A stretch of 64,000 nucleotides of DNA from Candidatus Parcubacteria bacterium (GCA_023396915.1 JAEWUV010000007.1:146077-210076), one strand, 5' to 3'. Shown: positions 4,314-39,034, numbered from the stretch's first letter. The notes: generated by a model not told the origin, from the sequence alone. Translations and numbers: made by a program.

Positions 4314-4997
4314 TTATTTTATTGAAAAACCACCATCTATAACCACCACCGAGCCAGTCATATAAGTGTTTTTTTCAGAAACTAAAAACAAAACCAATTG
4401 GGCAATTTCCTCCGGATTAACTAATCTCTTTAAAGGGATATCTTCCTCCAATGCTTTTATCTTTTCTGGTGAATTTCTGGCTGTTACCAATTCAGTGTTG
4501 GTAAAACCAGGACAAACTGAATTTACTAAAATATTATCCTGTGCCAACTCTAAAGCCAAAGCCTTTGTCATTCCATTAATTCCATGCTTTGCAGAACAAT
4601 ACAAAACCTGTTTACCTCTAGCTACCACACCAAAAGCCGAACTTATATTAATAATTCTTCCCCATTTGTTTTTCTTCATATTACCAACAAAAGCTCGAGT
4701 TAATTTAATTGGAGCCAATAAATCTATCTGAAAAGTATCCTTTATATTCTTATCGTCCATCTCTTCAATCCACTGAGGGTAATTAATCCCAGCATTATTA
4801 ATTAATATATCTACTTTCAAACTCTTATTTTTTTTAATATATTGATTAATTGATTTATCATCAGACAAATCTAACTCCTGTCTAGTAGGGGAAATAACAC
4901 AATATTTATTCTCTAACAATAAATCCTTTATAGCCTTACCTATTCCCCTAGAAGCACCTGTAATTAAAACATTCTTCTTTAGATTGTTAATCATCAT
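4314..4997 (-). CDS. SDR-family short-chain dehydrogenase/reductase
   Basis: VLITGASRGIGKAI and NAG motifs, classic SDR, 227 aa. Confidence 0.8.
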   Translation of the reverse strand: MMINNLKKNVLITGASRGIGKAIKDLLLENKYCVISPTRQELDLSDDKSINQYIKKNKSLKVDILINNAGINYPQWIEEMDDKNIKDTFQIDLLAPIKLTRAFVGNMKKNKWGRIINISSAFGVVARGKQVLYCSAKHGINGMTKALALELAQDNILVNSVCPGFTNTELVTARNSPEKIKALEEDIPLKRLVNPEEIAQLVLFLVSEKNTYMTGSVVVIDGGFSIK

Positions 4998-5012: not shown

Positions 5013-6833
5013 CTATTCTTTGGTACCTCCACTTATGATCATGTTTTCTTTCATTTCCTTTTCTGAAATGAACGGACACATATCTTCAAGTGGAGGAGAA
5101 ATAAACCGGCCACCATCTACCATTTTTGTAGTTAATTTAGGAGTTAAAACTAAATCTCTAACAGTATTAATATCGCAAAGAACAGGGCCATCAAAATTCA
5201 AAACTTGCTTTATTTTCTTAACCATTTCTTGGTGATTATTAATTCTTACAGTCTTAATACCATAAGCCTGTCCTACTTTTACATAATCAGGACAACTAAC
5301 CCCACTGTTAGGATCAGACGCGACATGTCTACCATTAAATAAATTATCTTGGGTATTAACAATTGACCTGTATCCATTATTGCTATAAACAAATAATTTT
5401 ACTGGTAATTTATAATGTTTAATAACCTGTAATTCATGAACACTTAATTGCAAACTTCCATCACCCTCAAAACAAATAACCCTTTTTTTATTATTAGCAA
5501 AACAAGCACCTATCGCCGCCGGTAAACCATAACCCATCTGAGCAGCTCCCAAATTTAAAATTATCCTTTGATTTTTTTTAACTTTAAAAACTTGATAAGA
5601 ACAGTTCATTGGACCAATTCCATTAGACAATACCACAACCTCATTTTCCTTTAAAAAATCACAAACAGTGTTTATAAAACAATATTGATTAACATATTTT
5701 TTATCTTTACAAAAATCTTCGGAAAAGGGTGGATATTTTTCATTAATTTTCGAACAATAATTCAACCACCTCTTTATTTTTAAACTACTATTTTTTACTT
5801 TTTCTTTTAATTGTTTGATCATTTCGTCAATAAAATCTTTAGCGTCAAAATTAATCGGTAAATCCACTGATAAAATCGGTTTATCTAATTCGTTCTTGTC
5901 AATATCAACCATAATCTTATAAGCTTTTCTGGCAAAAGCCTTATAGTTAAAACCTACCGTTAAAATATCCATTCTAGCTCCAACAGAAAGTAAAAAATCA
6001 CTATTTTGAATAATAAAATTTGCTGCCCGTTGCCCCAAAGCATGAGCTCTTCCAAAATAATACGGATTATCATCAGCCACTAAATCATAACCCACATAAC
6101 TTGTTAAAACTGGTATTTTAAGTAACTTTATTAGTTTTAATAATTCTTTACTAGCGCCTGACAAATGAACTCCATTCCCAACATACAAAACCGGCCTTTC
6201 TGATTTTAAAAGTTTATTTATTGTTTTCATTACTAAACTAGACAACTTTTTTTTATCAATAGAAAAATCTAAATTGATTTCACTTTCTTTAAACTCCTTA
6301 AAATTCTTCTCATCAACCAAAGCCCCTTGAATATCCAACGGTATATCTAACCAAACTGGGCCTTGTCTTCCATGAGTTGCTAAAAACAAAGCTTTGTCTA
6401 AATGATATTTAATCTCATTAGGGTCCATCACTGTTACTGCATATTTTGTAATTGGTTTAACTAAATCAACTATATTAATTTCTTGTGGACCTAATTGTCT
6501 CATCCCTCCAATTTTAGCCCCCATTAATTCTCTTTTAACTTGACCAGAAATCATTAAAACCGGAATAGAATCCAACCAACTTCCCATCACTCCCGTAATC
6601 GCATTTGTTCCACCAGGACCAGTAGTAACCAAACCAACACCAAATCCACTTAAGCGCGAATATCCTTCAGCAGCGGTAGACACTGCTTCTTCGTGGTGAC
6701 AACAAACATAATTAATATTACTTCTACCCAAAGAATCAACTAAATGTATATTTCCACCACCAGACAAAAGAAAAACATCCTTTATTCCTTTAGTATTTAA
6801 ATACTTAAAGACAAAATCGCTAAGTTTTATCAC
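5013..6833 (-). CDS. thiamine-pyrophosphate-dependent enzyme, acetolactate-synthase large-subunit-like (YerE-like sugar branching enzyme candidate)
   Basis: N-terminal TPP pyrimidine-binding region (LVTTGPGGTNAITGVMGSWLDSIPVLMISGQV) and C-terminal GDGS...NN TPP-binding motif. 606 aa. Confidence 0.8.
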   Translation of the reverse strand: MIKLSDFVFKYLNTKGIKDVFLLSGGGNIHLVDSLGRSNINYVCCHHEEAVSTAAEGYSRLSGFGVGLVTTGPGGTNAITGVMGSWLDSIPVLMISGQVKRELMGAKIGGMRQLGPQEINIVDLVKPITKYAVTVMDPNEIKYHLDKALFLATHGRQGPVWLDIPLDIQGALVDEKNFKEFKESEINLDFSIDKKKLSSLVMKTINKLLKSERPVLYVGNGVHLSGASKELLKLIKLLKIPVLTSYVGYDLVADDNPYYFGRAHALGQRAANFIIQNSDFLLSVGARMDILTVGFNYKAFARKAYKIMVDIDKNELDKPILSVDLPINFDAKDFIDEMIKQLKEKVKNSSLKIKRWLNYCSKINEKYPPFSEDFCKDKKYVNQYCFINTVCDFLKENEVVVLSNGIGPMNCSYQVFKVKKNQRIILNLGAAQMGYGLPAAIGACFANNKKRVICFEGDGSLQLSVHELQVIKHYKLPVKLFVYSNNGYRSIVNTQDNLFNGRHVASDPNSGVSCPDYVKVGQAYGIKTVRINNHQEMVKKIKQVLNFDGPVLCDINTVRDLVLTPKLTTKMVDGGRFISPPLEDMCPFISEKEMKENMIISGGTKE

Positions 6834-7891: not shown

Positions 7892-8820
7892 TTTTTAATT
7901 AAATAATTTATAGCTTCATAAACCGCACCTACTGGAGATTTTTTTATTTCCAAAACATACGGAGGTGCATACACATTCGATTTTATAATATTACCATCAT
8001 TAGTGAAACTATAAGGATAGCTTAATAATCCCTTATTATTATCATTAGGAGAATCTCCAAAAGTAGCTAATTGATTATCTTTTATTTTTAATTTCTTAAC
8101 TAAATTTTTCATCATATACAATTTCCCATCAACAATCTTTCCATTAATTCTTAAGTTTCTACCCACATCAGCAAATGGTAAATTTCCCCAAGAAACACAT
8201 AAATCATAAGGGGTCAACTTTCTTCTCAACACATTAATGATTTTCTTTTGTTCATTAATATCTGACGGTAAGACAAAAGTAACCTTAACAGCTTCAGCAA
8301 AAACACAACCCTTAGAATTACAAGAAATCTTGTAACAAGTCTCTGGCATTAAATCCTTTGGAGGTTTATTTTTCAAAAATTCATTAAAAAAAATTTTTGA
8401 TTTTAGGTCTGGTTCAACCTTTAACTTCTTGTAAACATCAAACGTTTTTTTTAATAAAGATTTATCAAAACTATTAGAATATATTTTTTTAACAAACACT
8501 TTTTTAGGAGTAAAAGTTAATCTATTTAAAACTGCTCCTGTTCCGCCAGACCGCCAAACAGTAAAAGAACAGTCGTTCTTCATACAAAATATCAAACCCA
8601 ACTCTCTAAGTTTAATGTCTAAAGTGGTGTTTCTTCCTGATACAAAAGCAAAATCTATTCCACTCTGAAACACACGAAAAGCCAACTCAATCACATTATC
8701 TAGTGAATTATAAGTTTTATCATTCCTATCATACACTGTTCCATCATAATCAACCGCAATTAATTTTACACCTCCACACTTTACTTCTTCTAATTTTTGC
8801 CACACTAAACTATTTTTCAT
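7888..8820 (-). CDS. HAD-superfamily (IIB, Cof-like) phosphatase
   Basis: KLIAVDYDGTV (DxDGT motif I), FVSGR, FGDSPND (motif IV). Confidence 0.7.
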   Translation of the reverse strand: MKNSLVWQKLEEVKCGGVKLIAVDYDGTVYDRNDKTYNSLDNVIELAFRVFQSGIDFAFVSGRNTTLDIKLRELGLIFCMKNDCSFTVWRSGGTGAVLNRLTFTPKKVFVKKIYSNSFDKSLLKKTFDVYKKLKVEPDLKSKIFFNEFLKNKPPKDLMPETCYKISCNSKGCVFAEAVKVTFVLPSDINEQKKIINVLRRKLTPYDLCVSWGNLPFADVGRNLRINGKIVDGKLYMMKNLVKKLKIKDNQLATFGDSPNDNNKGLLSYPYSFTNDGNIIKSNVYAPPYVLEIKKSPVGAVYEAINYLIKK

Positions 8821-9401
8821 TTACCTAATTTTAAATCATTTAAATTTTTTAAAATAAATTTAAGACAATCTGAATTTTCCGTATCCACTTCTACAACTGG
8901 CCAAAAATCTATCTTTTCAAAAAAACTTTCTGCCCATCTTAATTGTTTCAAGGTAGTTATATTTGAAAAACTACCTTCCTTTTTTCTTTTATTCAATCTT
9001 TTAACAATTTCATTATCTCCCGGCTTTTTTAAATAAAATATTCTTAAAGGTATCTTATACTTAAGCAAATAATCCTTTAAGACAACCAATGGCGCCTTAA
9101 ATTCTTTCCTTGAAAACGTAGCCGGTAACAAAACTGATTCACCTGAAGAAACCATATACCAAGCCTTAGAACAAAAATAAGCATAAACCGCAGCCATTAT
9201 AGGAAATTCTTCACTTTCAGTTAATAATTTAGGAGTCTCTCCATTGCATCTGTTTGGATCGATTAAGGTTCTAATTCTGTCCAACTCTAAAATCTCAAAG
9301 TTTGACACGCTTTTAATTTTCTTAGCCAAATAATCCTTTCCTCTCAAGGGGGAGCCATATACAACAACCACACAGGGTTTATATTTATGTTTTTTTACCA
9401 T
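8817..9401 (-). CDS. P-loop kinase-like protein (divergent Walker A GSPLRGKD)
   Basis: VVVVYGSPLRGKDYLAKKI looks like a P-loop at the N-terminus, 194 aa. Translationally coupled to the HAD and DHQS-like genes. Confidence 0.4.
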   Translation of the reverse strand: MVKKHKYKPCVVVVYGSPLRGKDYLAKKIKSVSNFEILELDRIRTLIDPNRCNGETPKLLTESEEFPIMAAVYAYFCSKAWYMVSSGESVLLPATFSRKEFKAPLVVLKDYLLKYKIPLRIFYLKKPGDNEIVKRLNKRKKEGSFSNITTLKQLRWAESFFEKIDFWPVVEVDTENSDCLKFILKNLNDLKLGK

Positions 9402-31899: not shown

Positions 31900-33045
31900 T
31901 TAAAAACTAACGCCCTGCCCTGTCAAGGGAAGGGATGGGGAAGGGTTTGTCTTTTCCCAAGAAAACTCTTCTCGACCAAAATGACCATACTTGGCTGTTT
32001 GTTGATATATCGGCCTTTTTAAATCAAATTTTTCAATAATCCCTTTAACCGACAAATCCATTAAATTCCAAGCAAAATCCTCAATAATTTTGATATCTTT
32101 TTTAGCTGTTCTAAAAGTTTCGATTGATTTTACTATCGGTTCTCTTTGACCAATCACATAAGCTAGTTGTACTTCACATCTATCGGCCAAACCAGCCGCC
32201 ACCAAATTTTTAGCCAAAAATCTGGCCGCATAAGCTGCACTTCGATCTACTTTGCTCGGATCTTTTCCCGAAAAACAACCACCACCAATTCTACCCATTC
32301 CCCCGTAAGTATCTACTACAATTTTTCTACCAGTCACTCCGGTGTCACTTGCTGGCCCTCCGATTTCCCAAATTCCGGTTCCATTAAAAATTACCTTATC
32401 TTTAGGTATTTTAGTTAAATCATATTTTTCCAACACCGGCAAAACTGCCAAATTATATAAATCTTGCTTAACTTCTTCTGTTTTATTTTCTCTTCCAAAC
32501 GGTTTAGCTAAAACCACCGTATCAACCCCCATTACTTTTCCATTATCATAAATTACACTCACTTCTGCTTTACCATCAGGTCTTAGATAATTTAATTTTC
32601 CAAATTGCAGTTCATCCATTTTTCGGCATAACTCATGCGCCAAAACTATCGGCAACGGCATTAACTGAGGAGTCTCATTACAGGCATAACCAAACATCAT
32701 TCCTTGATCATCAGCTCCGTCATTATCCGCCCCAACAGCAATATCTTTTGACTGCTCGTGAACCAAAACTTCAATATCGGCATTTTCATCAAAATTAAAA
32801 ATTGAGCTTATAAAACCAATTTCTCTAATCTTTTTTTTGGCAATCTCTTTATAGTCCAAACTTTGTTTACAACTTACTTCACCCGCCATTACCACTTTAT
32901 TAACAGTCACCAAGGTTTCCAAGGCTACTCTTGATTCTTTGTCAACCATTAACGCTGCATCCAAAACAGCATCAGAGATTTGATCACAAATTTTATCCGG
33001 ATGACCACTACAAACCGACTCTGAAGTAAATAAAGAATAATTCAT
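31900..33045 (-). CDS. metK: S-adenosylmethionine synthetase, with C-terminal 12 aa (PSPSLPLTGQGVSF region) encoded by the 37-bp repeat
   Basis: SESVCSGHPDKICDQISDAVLDA, GGGCFSGKDPSKVDRSAAYAAR, AKYGHFGR..WEKT are canonical MetK motifs. Confidence 0.9.
   Translation of the reverse strand: MNYSLFTSESVCSGHPDKICDQISDAVLDAALMVDKESRVALETLVTVNKVVMAGEVSCKQSLDYKEIAKKKIREIGFISSIFNFDENADIEVLVHEQSKDIAVGADNDGADDQGMMFGYACNETPQLMPLPIVLAHELCRKMDELQFGKLNYLRPDGKAEVSVIYDNGKVMGVDTVVLAKPFGRENKTEEVKQDLYNLAVLPVLEKYDLTKIPKDKVIFNGTGIWEIGGPASDTGVTGRKIVVDTYGGMGRIGGGCFSGKDPSKVDRSAAYAARFLAKNLVAAGLADRCEVQLAYVIGQREPIVKSIETFRTAKKDIKIIEDFAWNLMDLSVKGIIEKFDLKRPIYQQTAKYGHFGREEFSWEKTNPSPSLPLTGQGVSF
31912..31948 (+). repeat. 37-bp GC-rich element copy 1 (GCCCTGCCCTGTCAAGGGAAGGGATGGGGAAGGGTTT), inside metK 3' end
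   Basis: Exact match to the consensus shared with copies at 34719, 35760 and 38560. Confidence 0.9.
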
Positions 33046-34041: not shown

Positions 34042-35295
34042 ATGTCAAAAATTCTTTGTCTTAGTCATATTTTCCCCCCGGCAATAGATGGGGGATCTCG
34101 GGTCGTCTACAAACTCGGCCAATATTTTCAAAACCAAGGTAATCAAGTTTTATTTCTTTCTTCTGACTGTTCTTCCACCGACGATTTCACCAAAAAAGTT
34201 TCCCTTTTTAAGGGAAAAACCGGTTTATCCGGAAAGGGTTTCATCAAAATTCCTGTCTATCATCATCTCCGCCGCTTTTTAAAATTTATTAATCTTTTTA
34301 TTCCTCCAAAAACCTATCTCCATCAGCTACTCAAAGTTTTTCAAAAAGGACCTATTTTTAAATTTATACCTTTTATAAAAACCACTTTCAAAATTATAAA
34401 ATTTAAACCTGACTTAATTATCGCCGGACCACTCCCCACCACCATTATTCTCTACGCCAATTTTCTCAAAAAAATATCTACGATCTACAATCTACGACCT
34501 AAAATCTTACTTAATGCTTCTTTTCACCCCACCGACCACGACTTTCACTGTCTTCCTTTAATTAAAACCTTACAAAAAGCCGACTACCTTTGGACCCTGA
34601 CCCAATTCGAAACTAACTATTTTATAAAAAATTTTAATATTAATCCAAAAAAAATAATTCTTGCCGGCAACGGCATCGACCAATCATTTTTAAAAACTAA
34701 TAAACAAAAAAAAGTAGTGCCCTGCCCTGTCAAGGGAAGGGGTAGGGAAGGGTTTCGTCTTTTATTTATCGGCTCACTTTCCGCCCATAAAGGCCTTGAT
34801 ACCCTTATCACTTCTTTCTCTAACATCTATCGTCCAAAATCTAATATCTCGTTAACCATTGCCGGTCAAAAAACTCTCTACTACCCCCAAATCAAAAAAC
34901 AAATCCAAACACTTCCTCAAAATATTAAATCCAAAATAAAATTTATTTTTAATTTCTCCCAGAACAAATTAAGCCAAATTATCGACAACTGTGATATTTT
35001 AATTTTACCCTCAAAACAGGAAAGTTTTGGCTTAGTTATTATTGAGGCTTGGGCCAGACAAAAACCGGTTATTGTTAGCGATATTCCTTCACTTTCTGAA
35101 ATAACCCAAAAAGCCAATGGGGGTCTAACCTTCAAACTCAACAATTTTTCCAATCTAAATCAAAAAATATCAAAATTATTAAAGAACTCCAAACTTGCCA
35201 ATCAACTTGGCAAAAATGGTTTTAATTATGTTAAAAATAATTACACATGGAACATAGTCGGAAGAAAAATAAAAGAAGAAATCTCATTATATTAG
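34042..35295 (+). CDS. GT4 glycosyltransferase (carries repeat copy 2 at its inter-domain linker)
   Basis: MSKILCLSHIFPPAIDGGSRVV...; C-domain start LLFIGSLSAHKG; ...LPSKQESFGLVIIEAWA. Confidence 0.8.
   Translation: MSKILCLSHIFPPAIDGGSRVVYKLGQYFQNQGNQVLFLSSDCSSTDDFTKKVSLFKGKTGLSGKGFIKIPVYHHLRRFLKFINLFIPPKTYLHQLLKVFQKGPIFKFIPFIKTTFKIIKFKPDLIIAGPLPTTIILYANFLKKISTIYNLRPKILLNASFHPTDHDFHCLPLIKTLQKADYLWTLTQFETNYFIKNFNINPKKIILAGNGIDQSFLKTNKQKKVVPCPVKGRGREGFRLLFIGSLSAHKGLDTLITSFSNIYRPKSNISLTIAGQKTLYYPQIKKQIQTLPQNIKSKIKFIFNFSQNKLSQIIDNCDILILPSKQESFGLVIIEAWARQKPVIVSDIPSLSEITQKANGGLTFKLNNFSNLNQKISKLLKNSKLANQLGKNGFNYVKNNYTWNIVGRKIKEEISLY
34719..34755 (+). repeat. 37-bp GC-rich element copy 2 (translated VPCPVKGRGREGF)
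   Basis: GCCCTGCCCTGTCAAGGGAAGGGGTAGGGAAGGGTTT. Confidence 0.9.
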
Positions 35296-35723
35296 CTTTT
35301 ATTGGTTTGCTGATTATCATTGGTATAATTTCACTTTTGCTTAAAAAGCAAAATACCTTTCCAAAAAGTTTAGGCGTAGTCATCAAAAACAACGGCTACT
35401 ATCTAGAAGTGGCTCAAAGTAACCAAGAAACAAAAAAAGGGTTATCCAACAGAGACCAGCTTTGCCCTAATTGCGGTATGCTTTTTGTTTTTAACAAGGA
35501 AGATCAACATGATTTTTGGATGAAGGATACCCATATTCCGCTAGACATTATTTGGATTAATTCAAAAAAAGAAATTGTCAAAATTATTGTCTCCGCCAAA
35601 ACTGACTCTGAAACCATCTATAGCAACAAAGCTCCCGCTCAATACGTTATTGAACTGCCAGCTAACGAAAGTCTAAAACTCAACCTGCAAGTAGGGGACA
35701 CCATTCCTATCTTTGACCAGTGA
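35247..35723 (+). CDS. DUF192-domain protein
   Basis: LCPNCGMLFVF...DFWMKDTHIPLDIIWIN...YVIELPAN matches the DUF192 pattern. The listed start overlaps the upstream GT by 48 nt, so the true start may be downstream. Confidence 0.6.
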   Translation: MEHSRKKNKRRNLIILAFIGLLIIIGIISLLLKKQNTFPKSLGVVIKNNGYYLEVAQSNQETKKGLSNRDQLCPNCGMLFVFNKEDQHDFWMKDTHIPLDIIWINSKKEIVKIIVSAKTDSETIYSNKAPAQYVIELPANESLKLNLQVGDTIPIFDQ

Positions 35724-36775
35724 AAGTTAAACAAAAGTTTACTAACAAAAAGAAGAAGTGCCCTGCCCTGTCAAGGGAAGGGATAGGGAAGGGTTTATCT
35801 TTTTCTATAGTCATTCCCAATTACAACGGAAAAAATTTTTTACCGAATTGTCTTCAATCCCTACTTCAATCAATCAAAAATTGTCCTAAGTCAAATTTTG
35901 AAATTATCATTGTCGACAATGGTTCCACCGACAACAGCATTCAATTAGTCAAAGATTTTTTTACCAAACATAAACTCCAAAATCTAGAATCTAAAATCTT
36001 ACATTTAGAATCTAACACCGGTTTCGCTTTTGCCGTTAATCAGGGTATTAAAATTGCCAAATATCCATATGTTTGTGTTTGTAACAATGATTTAAAATTA
36101 AAAAACGATTGGTTTAAAATTATTAGCCAAGAAATCAAAAACAACCAAAAAAATCATAAAATTACTACTTTTTTTAGTACTGTTCTCAACTATAATGGCA
36201 CTAAATTTGAATCCCAAGGTTTTGAATTTAATTACTCCGGCAAATGCACCAACATCAGCAACGATAAAATATTTTTAGCATCTAGCATCTTGCATCTTAA
36301 ATCTAATTTAGTATGGGGTGCTCCTGCTGCCCTTATAGTTTATAAAAAGGAAATTATCCAAAAAATAGGCGCCTTTGATTCTGACTTTTTTGCCTACGAA
36401 GAAGATGTCGATTTAAACCTCAGACTTAAAAATTTCGGTTATCAAACCCTATATATTCCCCAAGCTATTTGTTACCATCTTGGCGGCGCCACCAGTAATA
36501 GAATGGGGAATTTTAGAAACAGAATGGATGCCAAAAATTGGATTTATATTATCATCAAAAACTACCCCGCTAAATTTATTTTTAAATATTTCTTTCCTAT
36601 CATAGAACAAAGGCTCAGAAATTTATCATCTTTAATCAAAAATACGTCAATTAAAAAACTTCCAAAAGACATTATCGCTACCTATGGCGAAGTCTTATTC
36701 AACCTACCCAAAATGTTCCAAAAACGCCGCTATACCCAAAAAATGTTAAAATCAAACCATGATTATTGGACTTGA
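35720..36775 (+). CDS. family 2 glycosyltransferase (GTG start; repeat copy 3 encoded in N-terminal extension)
   Basis: SFSIVIPNYNGKNFLPNCLQSL...IIVDNGSTDNS. Confidence 0.75.
   Translation: MKVKQKFTNKKKKCPALSREGIGKGLSFSIVIPNYNGKNFLPNCLQSLLQSIKNCPKSNFEIIIVDNGSTDNSIQLVKDFFTKHKLQNLESKILHLESNTGFAFAVNQGIKIAKYPYVCVCNNDLKLKNDWFKIISQEIKNNQKNHKITTFFSTVLNYNGTKFESQGFEFNYSGKCTNISNDKIFLASSILHLKSNLVWGAPAALIVYKKEIIQKIGAFDSDFFAYEEDVDLNLRLKNFGYQTLYIPQAICYHLGGATSNRMGNFRNRMDAKNWIYIIIKNYPAKFIFKYFFPIIEQRLRNLSSLIKNTSIKKLPKDIIATYGEVLFNLPKMFQKRRYTQKMLKSNHDYWT
35760..35796 (+). repeat. 37-bp GC-rich element copy 3 (translated CPALSREGIGKGL, a different frame)
   Basis: GCCCTGCCCTGTCAAGGGAAGGGATAGGGAAGGGTTT. Confidence 0.9.
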
Positions 36776-37892
36776 TATTTCCTCTGTTGCTTATCAGACA
36801 GGAGTAAGCAATTATACCCTTAACTTAGTCAAAAACTTAATATCTATTGATAAAACCAACCACTACAAACTTTTCTTTTCCTCTCTCAGGCTACCTCTTC
36901 CCTCAGAAATTATTAAACTTAAAAACAATCGTAACGTTACCATATACCATTTTCGACTTCCTCCAACTCTTTTACAAATTCTTTGGAATCAGCTGCGACT
37001 GTTTCCCGTCGAAATGTTTATCGGTAAATGTGATATTTTTCACACCTCAGACTGGACCCAGCCGCCAACATTAAAAGCCAAAACTATTACCACAATTCAC
37101 GATTTAACTCCGTTTCTTTTCCCTCAATGGCACCACCCCAAAGTCATCAACGCCCATCATAATAAAATGTATTGGGCTGCCAAAAAATGTACCAAGTTTA
37201 TTTGTGTATCGAAAAATACTAAAAATGATTTAATCAAACTTTTCCCAAAAATTGACGAATCTAAAACAGAAGTTATTTATGAAGCCGCCGAAAATAAATA
37301 TACCTTGTTTCATAAACTTCCATTAAAAACTCAACAACAAAAAATCTCCTTGATAAAAAAACAATATAACTTAAACGAGTTTATTCTGGCTCAAGGCACC
37401 AGAGAACCTCGTAAAAATCTAGACAGACTAGTCAAAGCTTTCCTTAAATTCAAACAGGAAAATCCAAAAAACAAAATTCAACTGGCCATTACCGGCAAAT
37501 ACGGTTGGGGAAAAGATATTTCTACCTCTGACTCCGATGTAAAAATTCTTGGATTTATCCCAGAAATTAACATGGTTGCTCTACATGCCGCCGCCACTTG
37601 TCTTGTTTATCCTTCCCTTTACGAAGGCTTTGGATTACCTATTATTAAATCCTTTACCGTCGGCGTTCCAGTTGTTACCAGCAACAACTCGTCTTTGGCA
37701 GAAATTTCTCAAGATTCCGCTATTTTAGTTAATCCAAATTCAATTAATAATATTCAAAATGCCATAAAAAAAATAATTTCTTCCCCAAAACTCAGAGACG
37801 AATTATCCCAAAAAGGACTTAAGGTGGCCAATAAATTCAGCTGGGAAAAAACCGCCCAACAAACTTTACAAGTTTACAATTCATTATGTTAA
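36759..37892 (+). CDS. GT4 glycosyltransferase
   Basis: MIIGLDISSVAYQTGVSNYTLNL...; C-terminal LYEGFGLPIIKSFTVGVPVVTSNNSSLAEI. Confidence 0.8.
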   Translation: MIIGLDISSVAYQTGVSNYTLNLVKNLISIDKTNHYKLFFSSLRLPLPSEIIKLKNNRNVTIYHFRLPPTLLQILWNQLRLFPVEMFIGKCDIFHTSDWTQPPTLKAKTITTIHDLTPFLFPQWHHPKVINAHHNKMYWAAKKCTKFICVSKNTKNDLIKLFPKIDESKTEVIYEAAENKYTLFHKLPLKTQQQKISLIKKQYNLNEFILAQGTREPRKNLDRLVKAFLKFKQENPKNKIQLAITGKYGWGKDISTSDSDVKILGFIPEINMVALHAAATCLVYPSLYEGFGLPIIKSFTVGVPVVTSNNSSLAEISQDSAILVNPNSINNIQNAIKKIISSPKLRDELSQKGLKVANKFSWEKTAQQTLQVYNSLC

Positions 37893-39034
37893 TTGGAATT
37901 GACGGCAACGAGGCTAATATTTCTCAAAGGGTCGGAGTCGGGCAATATGCCCTTAAATTACTTTGGCATTTGTATAAATTAGATAAAAAAAATAAATATT
38001 TAATTTATTTAAAAGAAAAACCCTCAAAAGAACTACCTCCAACCACCGAAAACTGGCAGTATCGTGTTTTTGGCCCTAGCAAAATGTGGACCAGACTAGC
38101 CTTACCTTTCCACCTGTTCACAGACAAAATTCCACTTGATTTATTCTTTTCTCCCAGTCATTACTCACCAAAATTTTCTCCCTTTCCCACCATCCCCACT
38201 ATTCATGATATCGGTTATCTTCAATTCCAAGACCAATTTACTAAAAAAGACCTCTACCAGCTAATCAATTGGACCAAAGAATCCATAAAAAAAGCCAGTC
38301 ATATTATTACTGTTTCCAAATTTTCCCAAAACGAAATTATCAAAACTTACAACGTTAACCCAAATAAAATAAGTATCGCTTATAACGGAGTAGAGGAACC
38401 ACCTAAAATAAATCCAAAAAACCAAGCTCAAATATTGTCTTCCTACAACCTCGTGTCTAAAAACTACTACCTATACTTAGGGACCTTAAAGCCTAATAAG
38501 AATATCCCATTTTTAATCAAAGGATATTCAAAATTCATTAAAAAATTCACTAATTCAACACCCTGCCCTGTCAAGGGAAGGGTTGGGGAAGGGTTTGGTC
38601 CTAAATTAGTTATTGCCGGCAAGAAAGGCTGGCTTTTTGATGAAATTTTTAAAACAGTCAAACAAGAAAAATTGGAGGATAAAGTTATTTTCACTGATTT
38701 TCTTGATAACTTACAAAAATGGACCTTATATCAAAACGCCATTGCTACAGTTTTACCCAGCACGTACGAAGGTTTTGGTATCCCAGCCATTGAATCTATG
38801 AAAACCGGTACACCAGTAATAGTTTCTGACATTCCGCCATTCAAAGAAGTGGTGGGGGATTGTGGCCTAATTATCGACCCCAACGATACTGCTGACTTAT
38901 GTCAAAAAATGATAAATATAAATAATCCTAATATTAGGCAAAAGTATTCACACCTAGGCAAAGTGCAAGCTGATAAATTCACTTGGAACTCTACCGCCAA
39001 ATCAGTCTTAAAAGTCTTTGAAAAATTCTGCTAA
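37886..39034 (+). CDS. GT4 glycosyltransferase (carries repeat copy 4 at its inter-domain linker)
   Basis: MLIGIDGNEANISQRVGVGQYAL...; KLVIAGKKG; TYEGFGIPAIESMKTGTPVIVSDIPPFKEV. Confidence 0.8.
   Translation: MLIGIDGNEANISQRVGVGQYALKLLWHLYKLDKKNKYLIYLKEKPSKELPPTTENWQYRVFGPSKMWTRLALPFHLFTDKIPLDLFFSPSHYSPKFSPFPTIPTIHDIGYLQFQDQFTKKDLYQLINWTKESIKKASHIITVSKFSQNEIIKTYNVNPNKISIAYNGVEEPPKINPKNQAQILSSYNLVSKNYYLYLGTLKPNKNIPFLIKGYSKFIKKFTNSTPCPVKGRVGEGFGPKLVIAGKKGWLFDEIFKTVKQEKLEDKVIFTDFLDNLQKWTLYQNAIATVLPSTYEGFGIPAIESMKTGTPVIVSDIPPFKEVVGDCGLIIDPNDTADLCQKMININNPNIRQKYSHLGKVQADKFTWNSTAKSVLKVFEKFC
38560..38596 (+). repeat. 37-bp GC-rich element copy 4 (translated TPCPVKGRVGEGF; first base A instead of G)
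   Basis: ACCCTGCCCTGTCAAGGGAAGGGTTGGGGAAGGGTTT. Confidence 0.9.

Follow-up and report, generated by a model that had tools for sequence, protein, structure and literature searches.

The stretch of DNA analysed here, 64 kb long with a GC content of 33% and called the window below, carries on its minus strand metK, the gene for S-adenosylmethionine synthetase, whose last codons overlap one of four window copies of a 36-nt repeat. All four copies lie on the plus strand and inside open reading frames (ORFs), and they share the core consensus CCCTGCCCTGTCAAGGGAAGGG-NNN-GGGAAGGGTTT; dinucleotide-preserving shuffles gave 0 matches to the 37-mer. The gene galE begins 44 nt downstream of metK on the same strand. 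We consider it likely that the C-terminal tail of this MetK is an in-frame insertion of a repeat typical of Shapirobacteria, carried as a tolerated passenger, and that the element is of the intrastrand-triplex type.

The metK 3' end and its relatives

The window MetK ends in ...WEKTNPSPSLPLTGQGVSF (in longer form ...AKYGHFGREEFSWEKTNPSPSLPLTGQGVSF) and reads ...EEFSWEK/TNPSPSLPLTGQGVSF across the junction with the tail. Three Pfam MetK domains (PF00438, PF02772, PF02773) span residues 5-365, and the C-terminal one, PF02773, is complete, with profile positions 1-138 of 138 matched at residues 228-365. MetK sequences from the PDB match the protein with E = 1e-109, and its AlphaFold (AF2) model, with a mean predicted local distance difference test score (pLDDT) of 83 and a predicted template modelling score (pTM) of 0.84, agrees with E. 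coli MetK at a TM-score of 0.84-0.85. In this monomer model pLDDT falls below 50 over residues 227-257, the region that holds the conserved GGP..D.G.TGRK, which may be an effect of modelling an oligomeric enzyme as a monomer; it is unrelated to the tail. The identical protein occurs on 16 contigs of independent ENA and Logan assemblies, the longest a scaffold of 906,714 bp; the tail is thus not an assembly artefact. A metagenome scan with the whole MetK protein returned, among the matches listed, only distant MetK (at most 68% identity) and no close relatives.

The limits of the repeat were set by a base profile of 85 copies from many genomes, in which conservation ceases 1-2 nt past the terminal CCCTG of the unit and gives way to flanks that are simply rich in A and T. 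Copy 1 contributes, in the minus-strand reading, base 3 of the T366 codon, all of N367-Q377 and bases 1 and 2 of G378, so that the repeat-encoded segment N367-G378 is NPSPSLPLTGQG. The stop codon (31900-31902) and the codons V379, S380 and F381 (31903-31911) lie outside the unit, the stop codon 11 nt beyond its conserved end. An earlier note on this DNA had assigned the last dozen codons and the stop to the reverse complement of copy 1; this holds for N367-G378, and does not hold for V379-F381 and the stop.

We then compared the ending with those of the best 120 MetK homologues, the closest of which come from Candidatus Shapirobacteria (Microgenomates, in the Candidate Phyla Radiation, CPR). 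Nearly all of them have 363-372 residues and end 1-4 residues past a conserved (P/S)WE(K). E. coli MetK, with 384 residues, continues for 13 residues after WEKT (DKAQLLRDAAGLK), and its alignment with the window MetK stops at its residue 374; a tail of this type was not found in the window lineage among these homologues. The statement of the earlier note that canonical MetK goes on for about 12 unrelated residues is therefore true of E. coli and false for this lineage. Since the homologues end shortly past WEK, there was no E. coli-like tail to be replaced, and the repeat is an addition of 12 residues to a naturally short C-terminus.

The DNA at the insert reads TGG GAA AAG AC/A AAC CCT ... 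CAG GG/C GTT AGT TTT TAA, where the slashes mark the ends of the repeat. Excising the 36 nt leaves ACC GTT AGT TTT TAA (T V S F stop), and hence a protein ...WEKTVSF of 369 residues, a length typical of the lineage. Endings of the form xF* are also found in element-free relatives (KIQF* in P0004, KIEF* in P0006, KIRF* in P0016); the ending AGTTTTTAA is identical in the window and in the more distant locus L162, which encodes P0061, and the downstream sequence TTTGATGATAAAAT is common to L162 and L004. Because the repeat stops short of the stop codon and the endings are shared with relatives, the stop and VSF codons are best read as probably ancestral, and the element, against the earlier proposal, does not donate the stop. 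Sequence comparison shows one repeat copy inserted in frame between the second and third bases of the T366 codon, the original stop lying three codons further on; a 369-residue ...WEKTVSF* has become a 381-residue ...WEKT-NPSPSLPLTGQG-VSF* that still uses the old stop codon. The 3' end of an essential gene has indeed been altered by a dispersed repeat, but to call it remodelled overstates a 12-codon in-frame insertion before the old stop.

Among the best 120 homologues the tail is shared by only two, P0002 (83% identical, ...KTNPSPTLPLTGQGVNF) and P0003 (81%, ...KTNPSLSLPLTEQGASF). Other additions occur at the same end of the protein. P0061 (74% identical) has a shorter tail, ...ETPPLKKGRSF, encoded at L162 5099-5134 by a short hairpin, CTCCCCTT-AAAA-AAGGGAG; P0076 carries about 30 additional residues with repeats of the SDLRSQVSDLKEQ type, and P0069 and P0075 both end in an added KTPLSR. 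In this clade, landings or expansions appear to recur at the C-terminus of MetK.

Four syntenic loci were compared over the LPG-synthase-like gene, metK, galE, the transporter gene and the upstream glycosyltransferase cluster. The MetK of L004 has the tail, encoded by the same repeat, which recurs elsewhere in that locus, while those of L005 (...PWEKIQF*) and L007 (...PWEILDK*) lack it. LPG synthase, GalE and the transporter are 86-97% identical in protein sequence within L004, L005 and L007, and 60-77% identical between this trio and the window, so that in a tight group the tail is present in one member and absent from its two closest relatives. Five shared genes give the tree ((L004,L007),L005),window; this comparison took the place of a neighbour-joining tree of MetK alone, whose resolution was too poor for dating the insertion. 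metK itself is a mosaic among L004 (9938-11252), L005 and L007, with 67-95% nucleotide identity per 150-nt window, and the three MetK proteins are 79-86% identical against 92-97% for the adjoining GalE and transporter proteins, which suggests recombination across metK. Between metK and galE, L005 (11126-12799) and L006 have an extra ORF of 557 residues with no Pfam match, which is missing from the window, L004, L007 and L162.

Whatever the history, there is a presumably working MetK that has the 12 residues and one that does not. The enzyme can probably dispense with the tail: L005 and L007 do without it, Pfam domain coverage is complete at residue 365, and the model shows residues 369-381 at pLDDT below 50 and free of secondary structure. 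Non-synonymous changes distinguish the three known tails (S/T, P/L, G/E, V/A, S/N), and for the metK copy the excess conservation of synonymous codons between the window and L004 is not significant (P = 0.13). These results suggest that the C-terminus of MetK is a permissive site and that the tail is probably disordered, tolerated and a neutral passenger. No orthologue was found to encode an identical tail in non-repeat DNA, which the earlier note had named as a refutation of its reading: the tails of P0002 and P0003 are near-identical to that of the window, and where DNA was available, in L004, the tail is repeat-encoded. The consequence for MetK is small, and annotators should not take the tail for a functional domain or a sorting signal.

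Table 1 Features of the window discussed in the text (positions counted from its first letter).
Feature	Position	Strand	Remarks
metK (S-adenosylmethionine synthetase)	31900..33045	minus	381 aa including the repeat-encoded tail
Probable ancestral metK end	31900..31912	minus	third base of G378, V379-S380-F381, TAA; outside the repeat unit
Repeat copy 1, 36-nt core CCCTGCCCTGTCAAGGGAAGGGATGGGGAAGGGTTT	31913-31948	plus	boundaries from the base profile of 85 copies
Copy 1, pyrimidine (Y) stem CCCTGCCCT	31913..31921	plus	pairs with 31926-31934 in DNA and RNA folds; triad scan
Copy 1, loop 1 GTCA	31922-31925	plus
Copy 1, purine (R) stem AGGGAAGGG	31926..31934	plus	complementary to the Y stem; folds, triad scan
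Copy 1, loop 2 ATG	31935-31937	plus
Copy 1, third stem GGGAAGGGT	31938..31946	plus	mirror image of the R stem; triad scan, subfamily covariation
Possible decayed copy	34207..34242	plus	peptide FKGKTGLSGKGF in GT4-a; weak nhmmer match (E = 4.4), low confidence
Repeat copy 2	34720-34755	plus	in frame in GT4 glycosyltransferase (34042..35295), encodes PCPVKGRGREGF
Repeat copy 3	35761-35796	plus	in frame in GT2 glycosyltransferase (35720..36775), encodes PALSREGIGKGL
Repeat copy 4	38561-38596	plus	in frame in second GT4 glycosyltransferase (37886..39034)

Anatomy and dispersal of the repeat

In the element, whose 34-nt G-rich strand is CCCTGCCCTGTCAAGGGAAGGGATGGGGAAGGGT, a 9-nt pyrimidine stem and a complementary 9-nt purine stem enclose a 4-nt loop (usually GTCA); a 3-nt loop of variable sequence then leads to a G-rich 9-mer that mirrors the purine stem. 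A profile search of the fetched loci yields a superfamily of variants with this common layout. In the canonical family the Y stem CCCTGCCCT, loop 1 GTCA, R stem AGGGAAGGG, loop 2 ATG and third stem GGGAAGGGT follow one another, and in variant A the corresponding parts are CCCCGTCTT, GTGA, AAGAAGGGG, TTA and GGGGAAGAT. The two differ at three positions, each of which is matched in all three stems.

In 98 hairpins the arms allow a mirror repeat to be told from a direct one. Of these, 29, representing 14 distinct arm pairs, have a third stem that mirrors the R stem with no more than one mismatch, and in none does it fit the R stem solely as a direct repeat. A permuted control expects 4. The pairing observed, G opposite G-C and A or T opposite A-T, follows the rules of the antiparallel purine-motif triplex; in copy 1, 8 of the 9 triads of the third stem are legal for this motif (C-G*G, T-A*A, T-A*T). 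Exactly four nine-triad motifs occur in the window, namely the four copies; in each, 8 of the 9 triads are legal and the loops measure 4 and 3 nt, and 20 shuffles gave none. In the 85-copy profile loop 2 (positions 22-24) varies and the third stem hardly does; the search pattern had fixed the first 22 nt of these copies, so that their invariance is uninformative.

From this anatomy and covariation we infer that the repeat is a class II purine-motif intrastrand-triplex element. Any structure would form where the G-rich strand, in metK the template strand, is single-stranded, and the element would have been selected for a three-stranded fold on that strand. Two other properties of the sequence were considered and set aside. 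Canonical copies contain a G-quadruplex motif (G3N2G3N2G3-4N2G3), but variant A keeps the layout with only two G-runs, so the quadruplex is not the conserved feature. An outward sigma-70 promoter from the loop TTGACA on the minus strand has no properly spaced -10 hexamer, and the scan reported none.

The other window copies resemble that in metK. Copy 2 sits in the linker between the two Pfam domains of its GT4 enzyme. Copy 3 falls within an N-terminal extension of about 20 residues before the Pfam domain of the GT2 enzyme, and the orthologues in L004 and L005 have no such extension. Copy 4 adds exactly 12 residues (CPVKGRVGEGFG) to its GT4 enzyme when this is compared with the L004 orthologue. 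At the site of the possible decayed copy L004 and L007 hold an intact element (PCPVKGRVGEGF), of which only the 3' GGAAAGGGTTT is recognisable in the window.

At the GT4 linker site, where the window has its canonical copy 2, L004 (8275-8310) and L007 (766-801) have variant A, here CCCCGTCTTGTGAAAGAAGGGGTTAGGGGAAGATTG, encoding PRLVKEGVRGRL; L004 has a second variant A copy (8176-8211) 33 codons downstream of the first. The presence of different subfamilies at one site could reflect replacement, gene conversion or repeated targeting. In L005 tandem arrays of the 8-mer CCAGAGCA (8799-8830, 8295-8326 and 4387-4418; also 8193-8208 and 6281-6296) encode peptides such as QSTRAPEHQST, and CCAGAGCA arrays occupy the same three glycosyltransferase sites as the triplex-type element elsewhere. 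Sequence comparison thus indicates that these permissive sites also host a repeat family unrelated to the triplex-type element.

A census of the family, in which the invariant 22-mer was searched in one genome per GTDB species, found it in 74 stretches of species representatives, mostly metagenome-assembled genomes (MAGs) of Shapirobacteria. Several of the bins carry the title 'Gammaproteobacteria', evidently in error; they share synteny with the window, at 55-77% identity in protein sequence. The same 22-mer also occurs in non-CPR MAGs of high GC content (56-61%), at L068 268-289, L079 4903-4924, L080 4955-4976, L045 803-824 and two sites of L053 (2909-2930 and 4997-5018), and in a Sumerlaeota MAG with 38% GC (L022 1444-1465). 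In L068, L079 and L080 the 22-mer directly follows the stop of an orthologous gene that the three share; the L079 gene encodes a hexapeptide-repeat acetyltransferase.

Placement was counted for 79 copies, all from genomes with less than 50% GC. Of these, 56 (71%) lie in ORFs of 100 codons or more, against 89.5% of random positions in the same loci, and the intragenic copies are oriented with the ORF in 27 cases and opposite to it in 29. The length is 36 nt in 47 of the 56, and seven copies of this census lie, as in metK, at most 15 codons from a stop. Five reading frames are observed (PCPVKGRVxEGF, PALSREGxGKGF, LPCQGKGxGRV, NPSPTLPLTGQG and KPFPNPSLDRAG); the sixth contains a TGA, and the other five of the six have no stop. 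A length of 12 codons with five open frames means that an insert often leaves the protein intact when it falls in a loop or terminus, and survival inside genes would then be a filter effect of these two properties.

Searches of wider collections returned no known relative of the element. No Rfam family matches it in the window region and seven other loci, a scan of viral contigs gave no matches, a BLAST search of plasmids gave only insignificant partial matches (E of at least 1), and we found no description in the literature of the element sequence or of intragenic repeats in CPR.

Weighing the explanations

Several observations weigh against the reading of the tail as an inserted triplex-type repeat. 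The flanks of the 85 copies show no target-site duplication and no duplicated or conserved sequence, the element's ends form no inverted repeat, and no transposase is known for it. The distribution of the tail disagrees with the species tree; a single ancient insertion with losses, two independent insertions at one site and exchange of alleles would each account for it, and metK is unusually mosaic among these genomes. Copy 1 and its counterpart in L004 are 33/36 identical, and the remainder of metK 80%, which is no clear sign of extra constraint (binomial P = 0.05). Triplex formation is argued from the symmetry of the sequence alone, the hairpin has a folding energy ordinary for its base composition (z about -1.4 with ViennaRNA, which considers hairpins only), and for TMECO, a triplex-forming repeat of E. 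coli, a stable triplex was not detected in duplex DNA or in vivo (PMC4666352).

Of the alternatives, the one that survives best, though we regard it as improbable, is that the element was kept as an intrinsic terminator or mRNA 3' stabiliser. An intrinsic terminator is a GC-rich hairpin with a U-run directly after it, and on the sense strand of metK the hairpin CCCTTCCCT-TGAC-AGGGCAGGG is followed by CGTTAGTTTTT; a consensus scan lists this as terminator-like, and L162 has at the same place a different short hairpin and then TTTTT. With copies 2 and 3, however, the scan equally flags the strand antisense to the gene, and the pattern would then simply reflect AT-rich flanks. Moreover, the listed hit used a shortened stem of 5 pairs, whereas the full 9-pair hairpin leaves a 6-nt spacer to the T-run. 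The hairpin also lies within translated sequence, 10 nt before the stop codon, with galE starting closely downstream, and L005 and L007 have no such hairpin. PIT motifs, which share the architecture, showed no promoter or terminator activity in E. coli in an earlier study (cited in PMC4666352).

It is very improbable that the element took the place of a tail like that of E. coli, about 12 residues long, and also supplied the stop codon. The lengths do look similar, with 13 residues after WEKT in E. coli and 15 in the window, but the short endings of nearly all homologues and the position of the stop and VSF codons outside the conserved unit, where they match the endings of relatives, speak against it.

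We give equally little credence to a function of the tail in the protein, for instance as an interaction or sorting motif. In the metK frame the element encodes LPLTG (31921-31935, minus strand, residues 372-376), which fits the LPXTG motif of sortases, and in three MetK lineages, 81-83% identical, the tail has been retained and has changed little. A sortase substrate has a signal peptide, LPXTG, a hydrophobic segment and a positively charged tail. MetK, in contrast, is cytoplasmic; on inspection its N-terminus (MNYSLFTSESV...) has no signal peptide and no hydrophobic stretch, and LPLTG is followed by QGVSF* with neither a hydrophobic segment nor a charged tail. The non-synonymous substitutions among the three tails, their absence from close relatives and the predicted disorder likewise speak against a function, as does the recurrence of the same peptide in unrelated proteins wherever the element inserts in this frame. 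LPLTG is thus probably a coincidence, which could mislead motif scans.

Finally, it is hardly credible that there was no insertion and that the tail is ancestral coding sequence, the other copies being derived from it or due to chance or convergence: only the similarity itself speaks for this, against a 22-mer spread over many genomes, unrelated genes and intergenic DNA, five frames in use, exact 36-nt presence and absence among orthologues, and a chance expectation of 0.

An in-frame insertion tolerated at a permissive terminus therefore remains our preferred explanation of the tail. A wider reading, which we offer tentatively and think rather doubtful, is that coding DNA is the main habitat of the Shapirobacteria repeats, that at least ten co-varying subfamilies imply selection for the three-stranded fold, and that shared sites undergo site-directed turnover, perhaps by a dedicated copying machinery, being held now by the canonical form, now by variant A or by (CCAGAGCA)n. 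The occupation of the same orthologous sites by different repeat families in different species suggests such turnover and not random insertion. If this is true, the metK tail would be one visible product of a continual editing of CPR protein loops and termini.

Relation to known repeats

The closest likeness is to the BoxC/PIT/TMECO repeats of E. coli and other bacteria (Holder et al. 2015, Nucleic Acids Res 43:10126, PMC4666352), which have a 9-nt C-rich stem, a 3-6-nt loop, a complementary 9-nt G-rich stem, a 3-nt loop and another G-rich stem of 9 nt. The present element shares with TMECO a total length of about 36-37 nt, the frequent single mismatched triad, a loop 2 more variable than the stems, many near-identical copies and the lack of a phage, plasmid or transposon link; presence, absence and degenerate copies likewise vary among related genomes. 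As a single strand in vitro, TMECO folds into a stable triplex; in E. coli MG1655 all of its copies are intergenic, it has no link to mobile elements and its loci are more variable between strains than control loci, and purine-motif triplexes cannot form in RNA (PMC4666352).

The differences are as plain. The stems CCCTGCCCT/AGGGAAGGG/GGGAAGGGT stand against the TMECO pattern CCCTCNCCC N3-6 GGGNGAGGG N3 GGGNGAGGG, the host is an AT-rich CPR lineage, and inverted-pair arrangements were not seen. Above all, the 71% of Shapirobacteria copies in long ORFs, mostly 36 nt long and in frame so that they add 12 residues, contrast with the intergenic TMECO. By its sequence the element fits the class of intrastrand-triplex repeats and not the TMECO sequence pattern, and it is new in being intragenic.

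With REP/REPIN sequences the element has in common that it is short, GC-rich, imperfectly palindromic, dispersed and present in many copies. REP (repetitive extragenic palindromic) elements are extragenic, often form inverted doublets and are accompanied by a RAYT gene, whose transposase mobilises REP/REPIN. Most copies here are, in contrast, intragenic, follow no doublet rule that we could see and have an extra mirror third stem. Like the MITEs (miniature transposable elements with inverted repeats) that make translational fusions (ERIC, BOX, Correia; PMC10969869), the element may extend or fuse ORFs at gene ends; MITEs, however, are at least 100 bp long with terminal inverted repeats and target-site duplications, none of which were seen in the element.

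In its mode of life the element most resembles the Rickettsia palindromic elements (RPE; Ogata et al. 2000, Science 290:347, as summarised in PMC10969869), which are likewise dispersed in a reduced genome and inserted in frame in unrelated genes, including housekeeping genes, with a tolerated peptide. By their description RPE are set apart as Rickettsia-specific families of about 100-150 bp that encode one conserved peptide (PMC10969869), whereas the element here has 36 nt, a triplex-type layout, five frames that are read and a CPR host. In E. coli and cyanobacteria, intrastrand-triplex repeats are known as sequences between genes that are linked to local genome instability; here such repeats would be in-frame passengers within genes, one of them of core metabolism, in a streamlined CPR genome. 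Their co-varying stems would offer a natural data set on whether the triplex fold is under selection, and after RPE they would provide a second example of selfish repeats that shape protein termini and linkers in reduced genomes.

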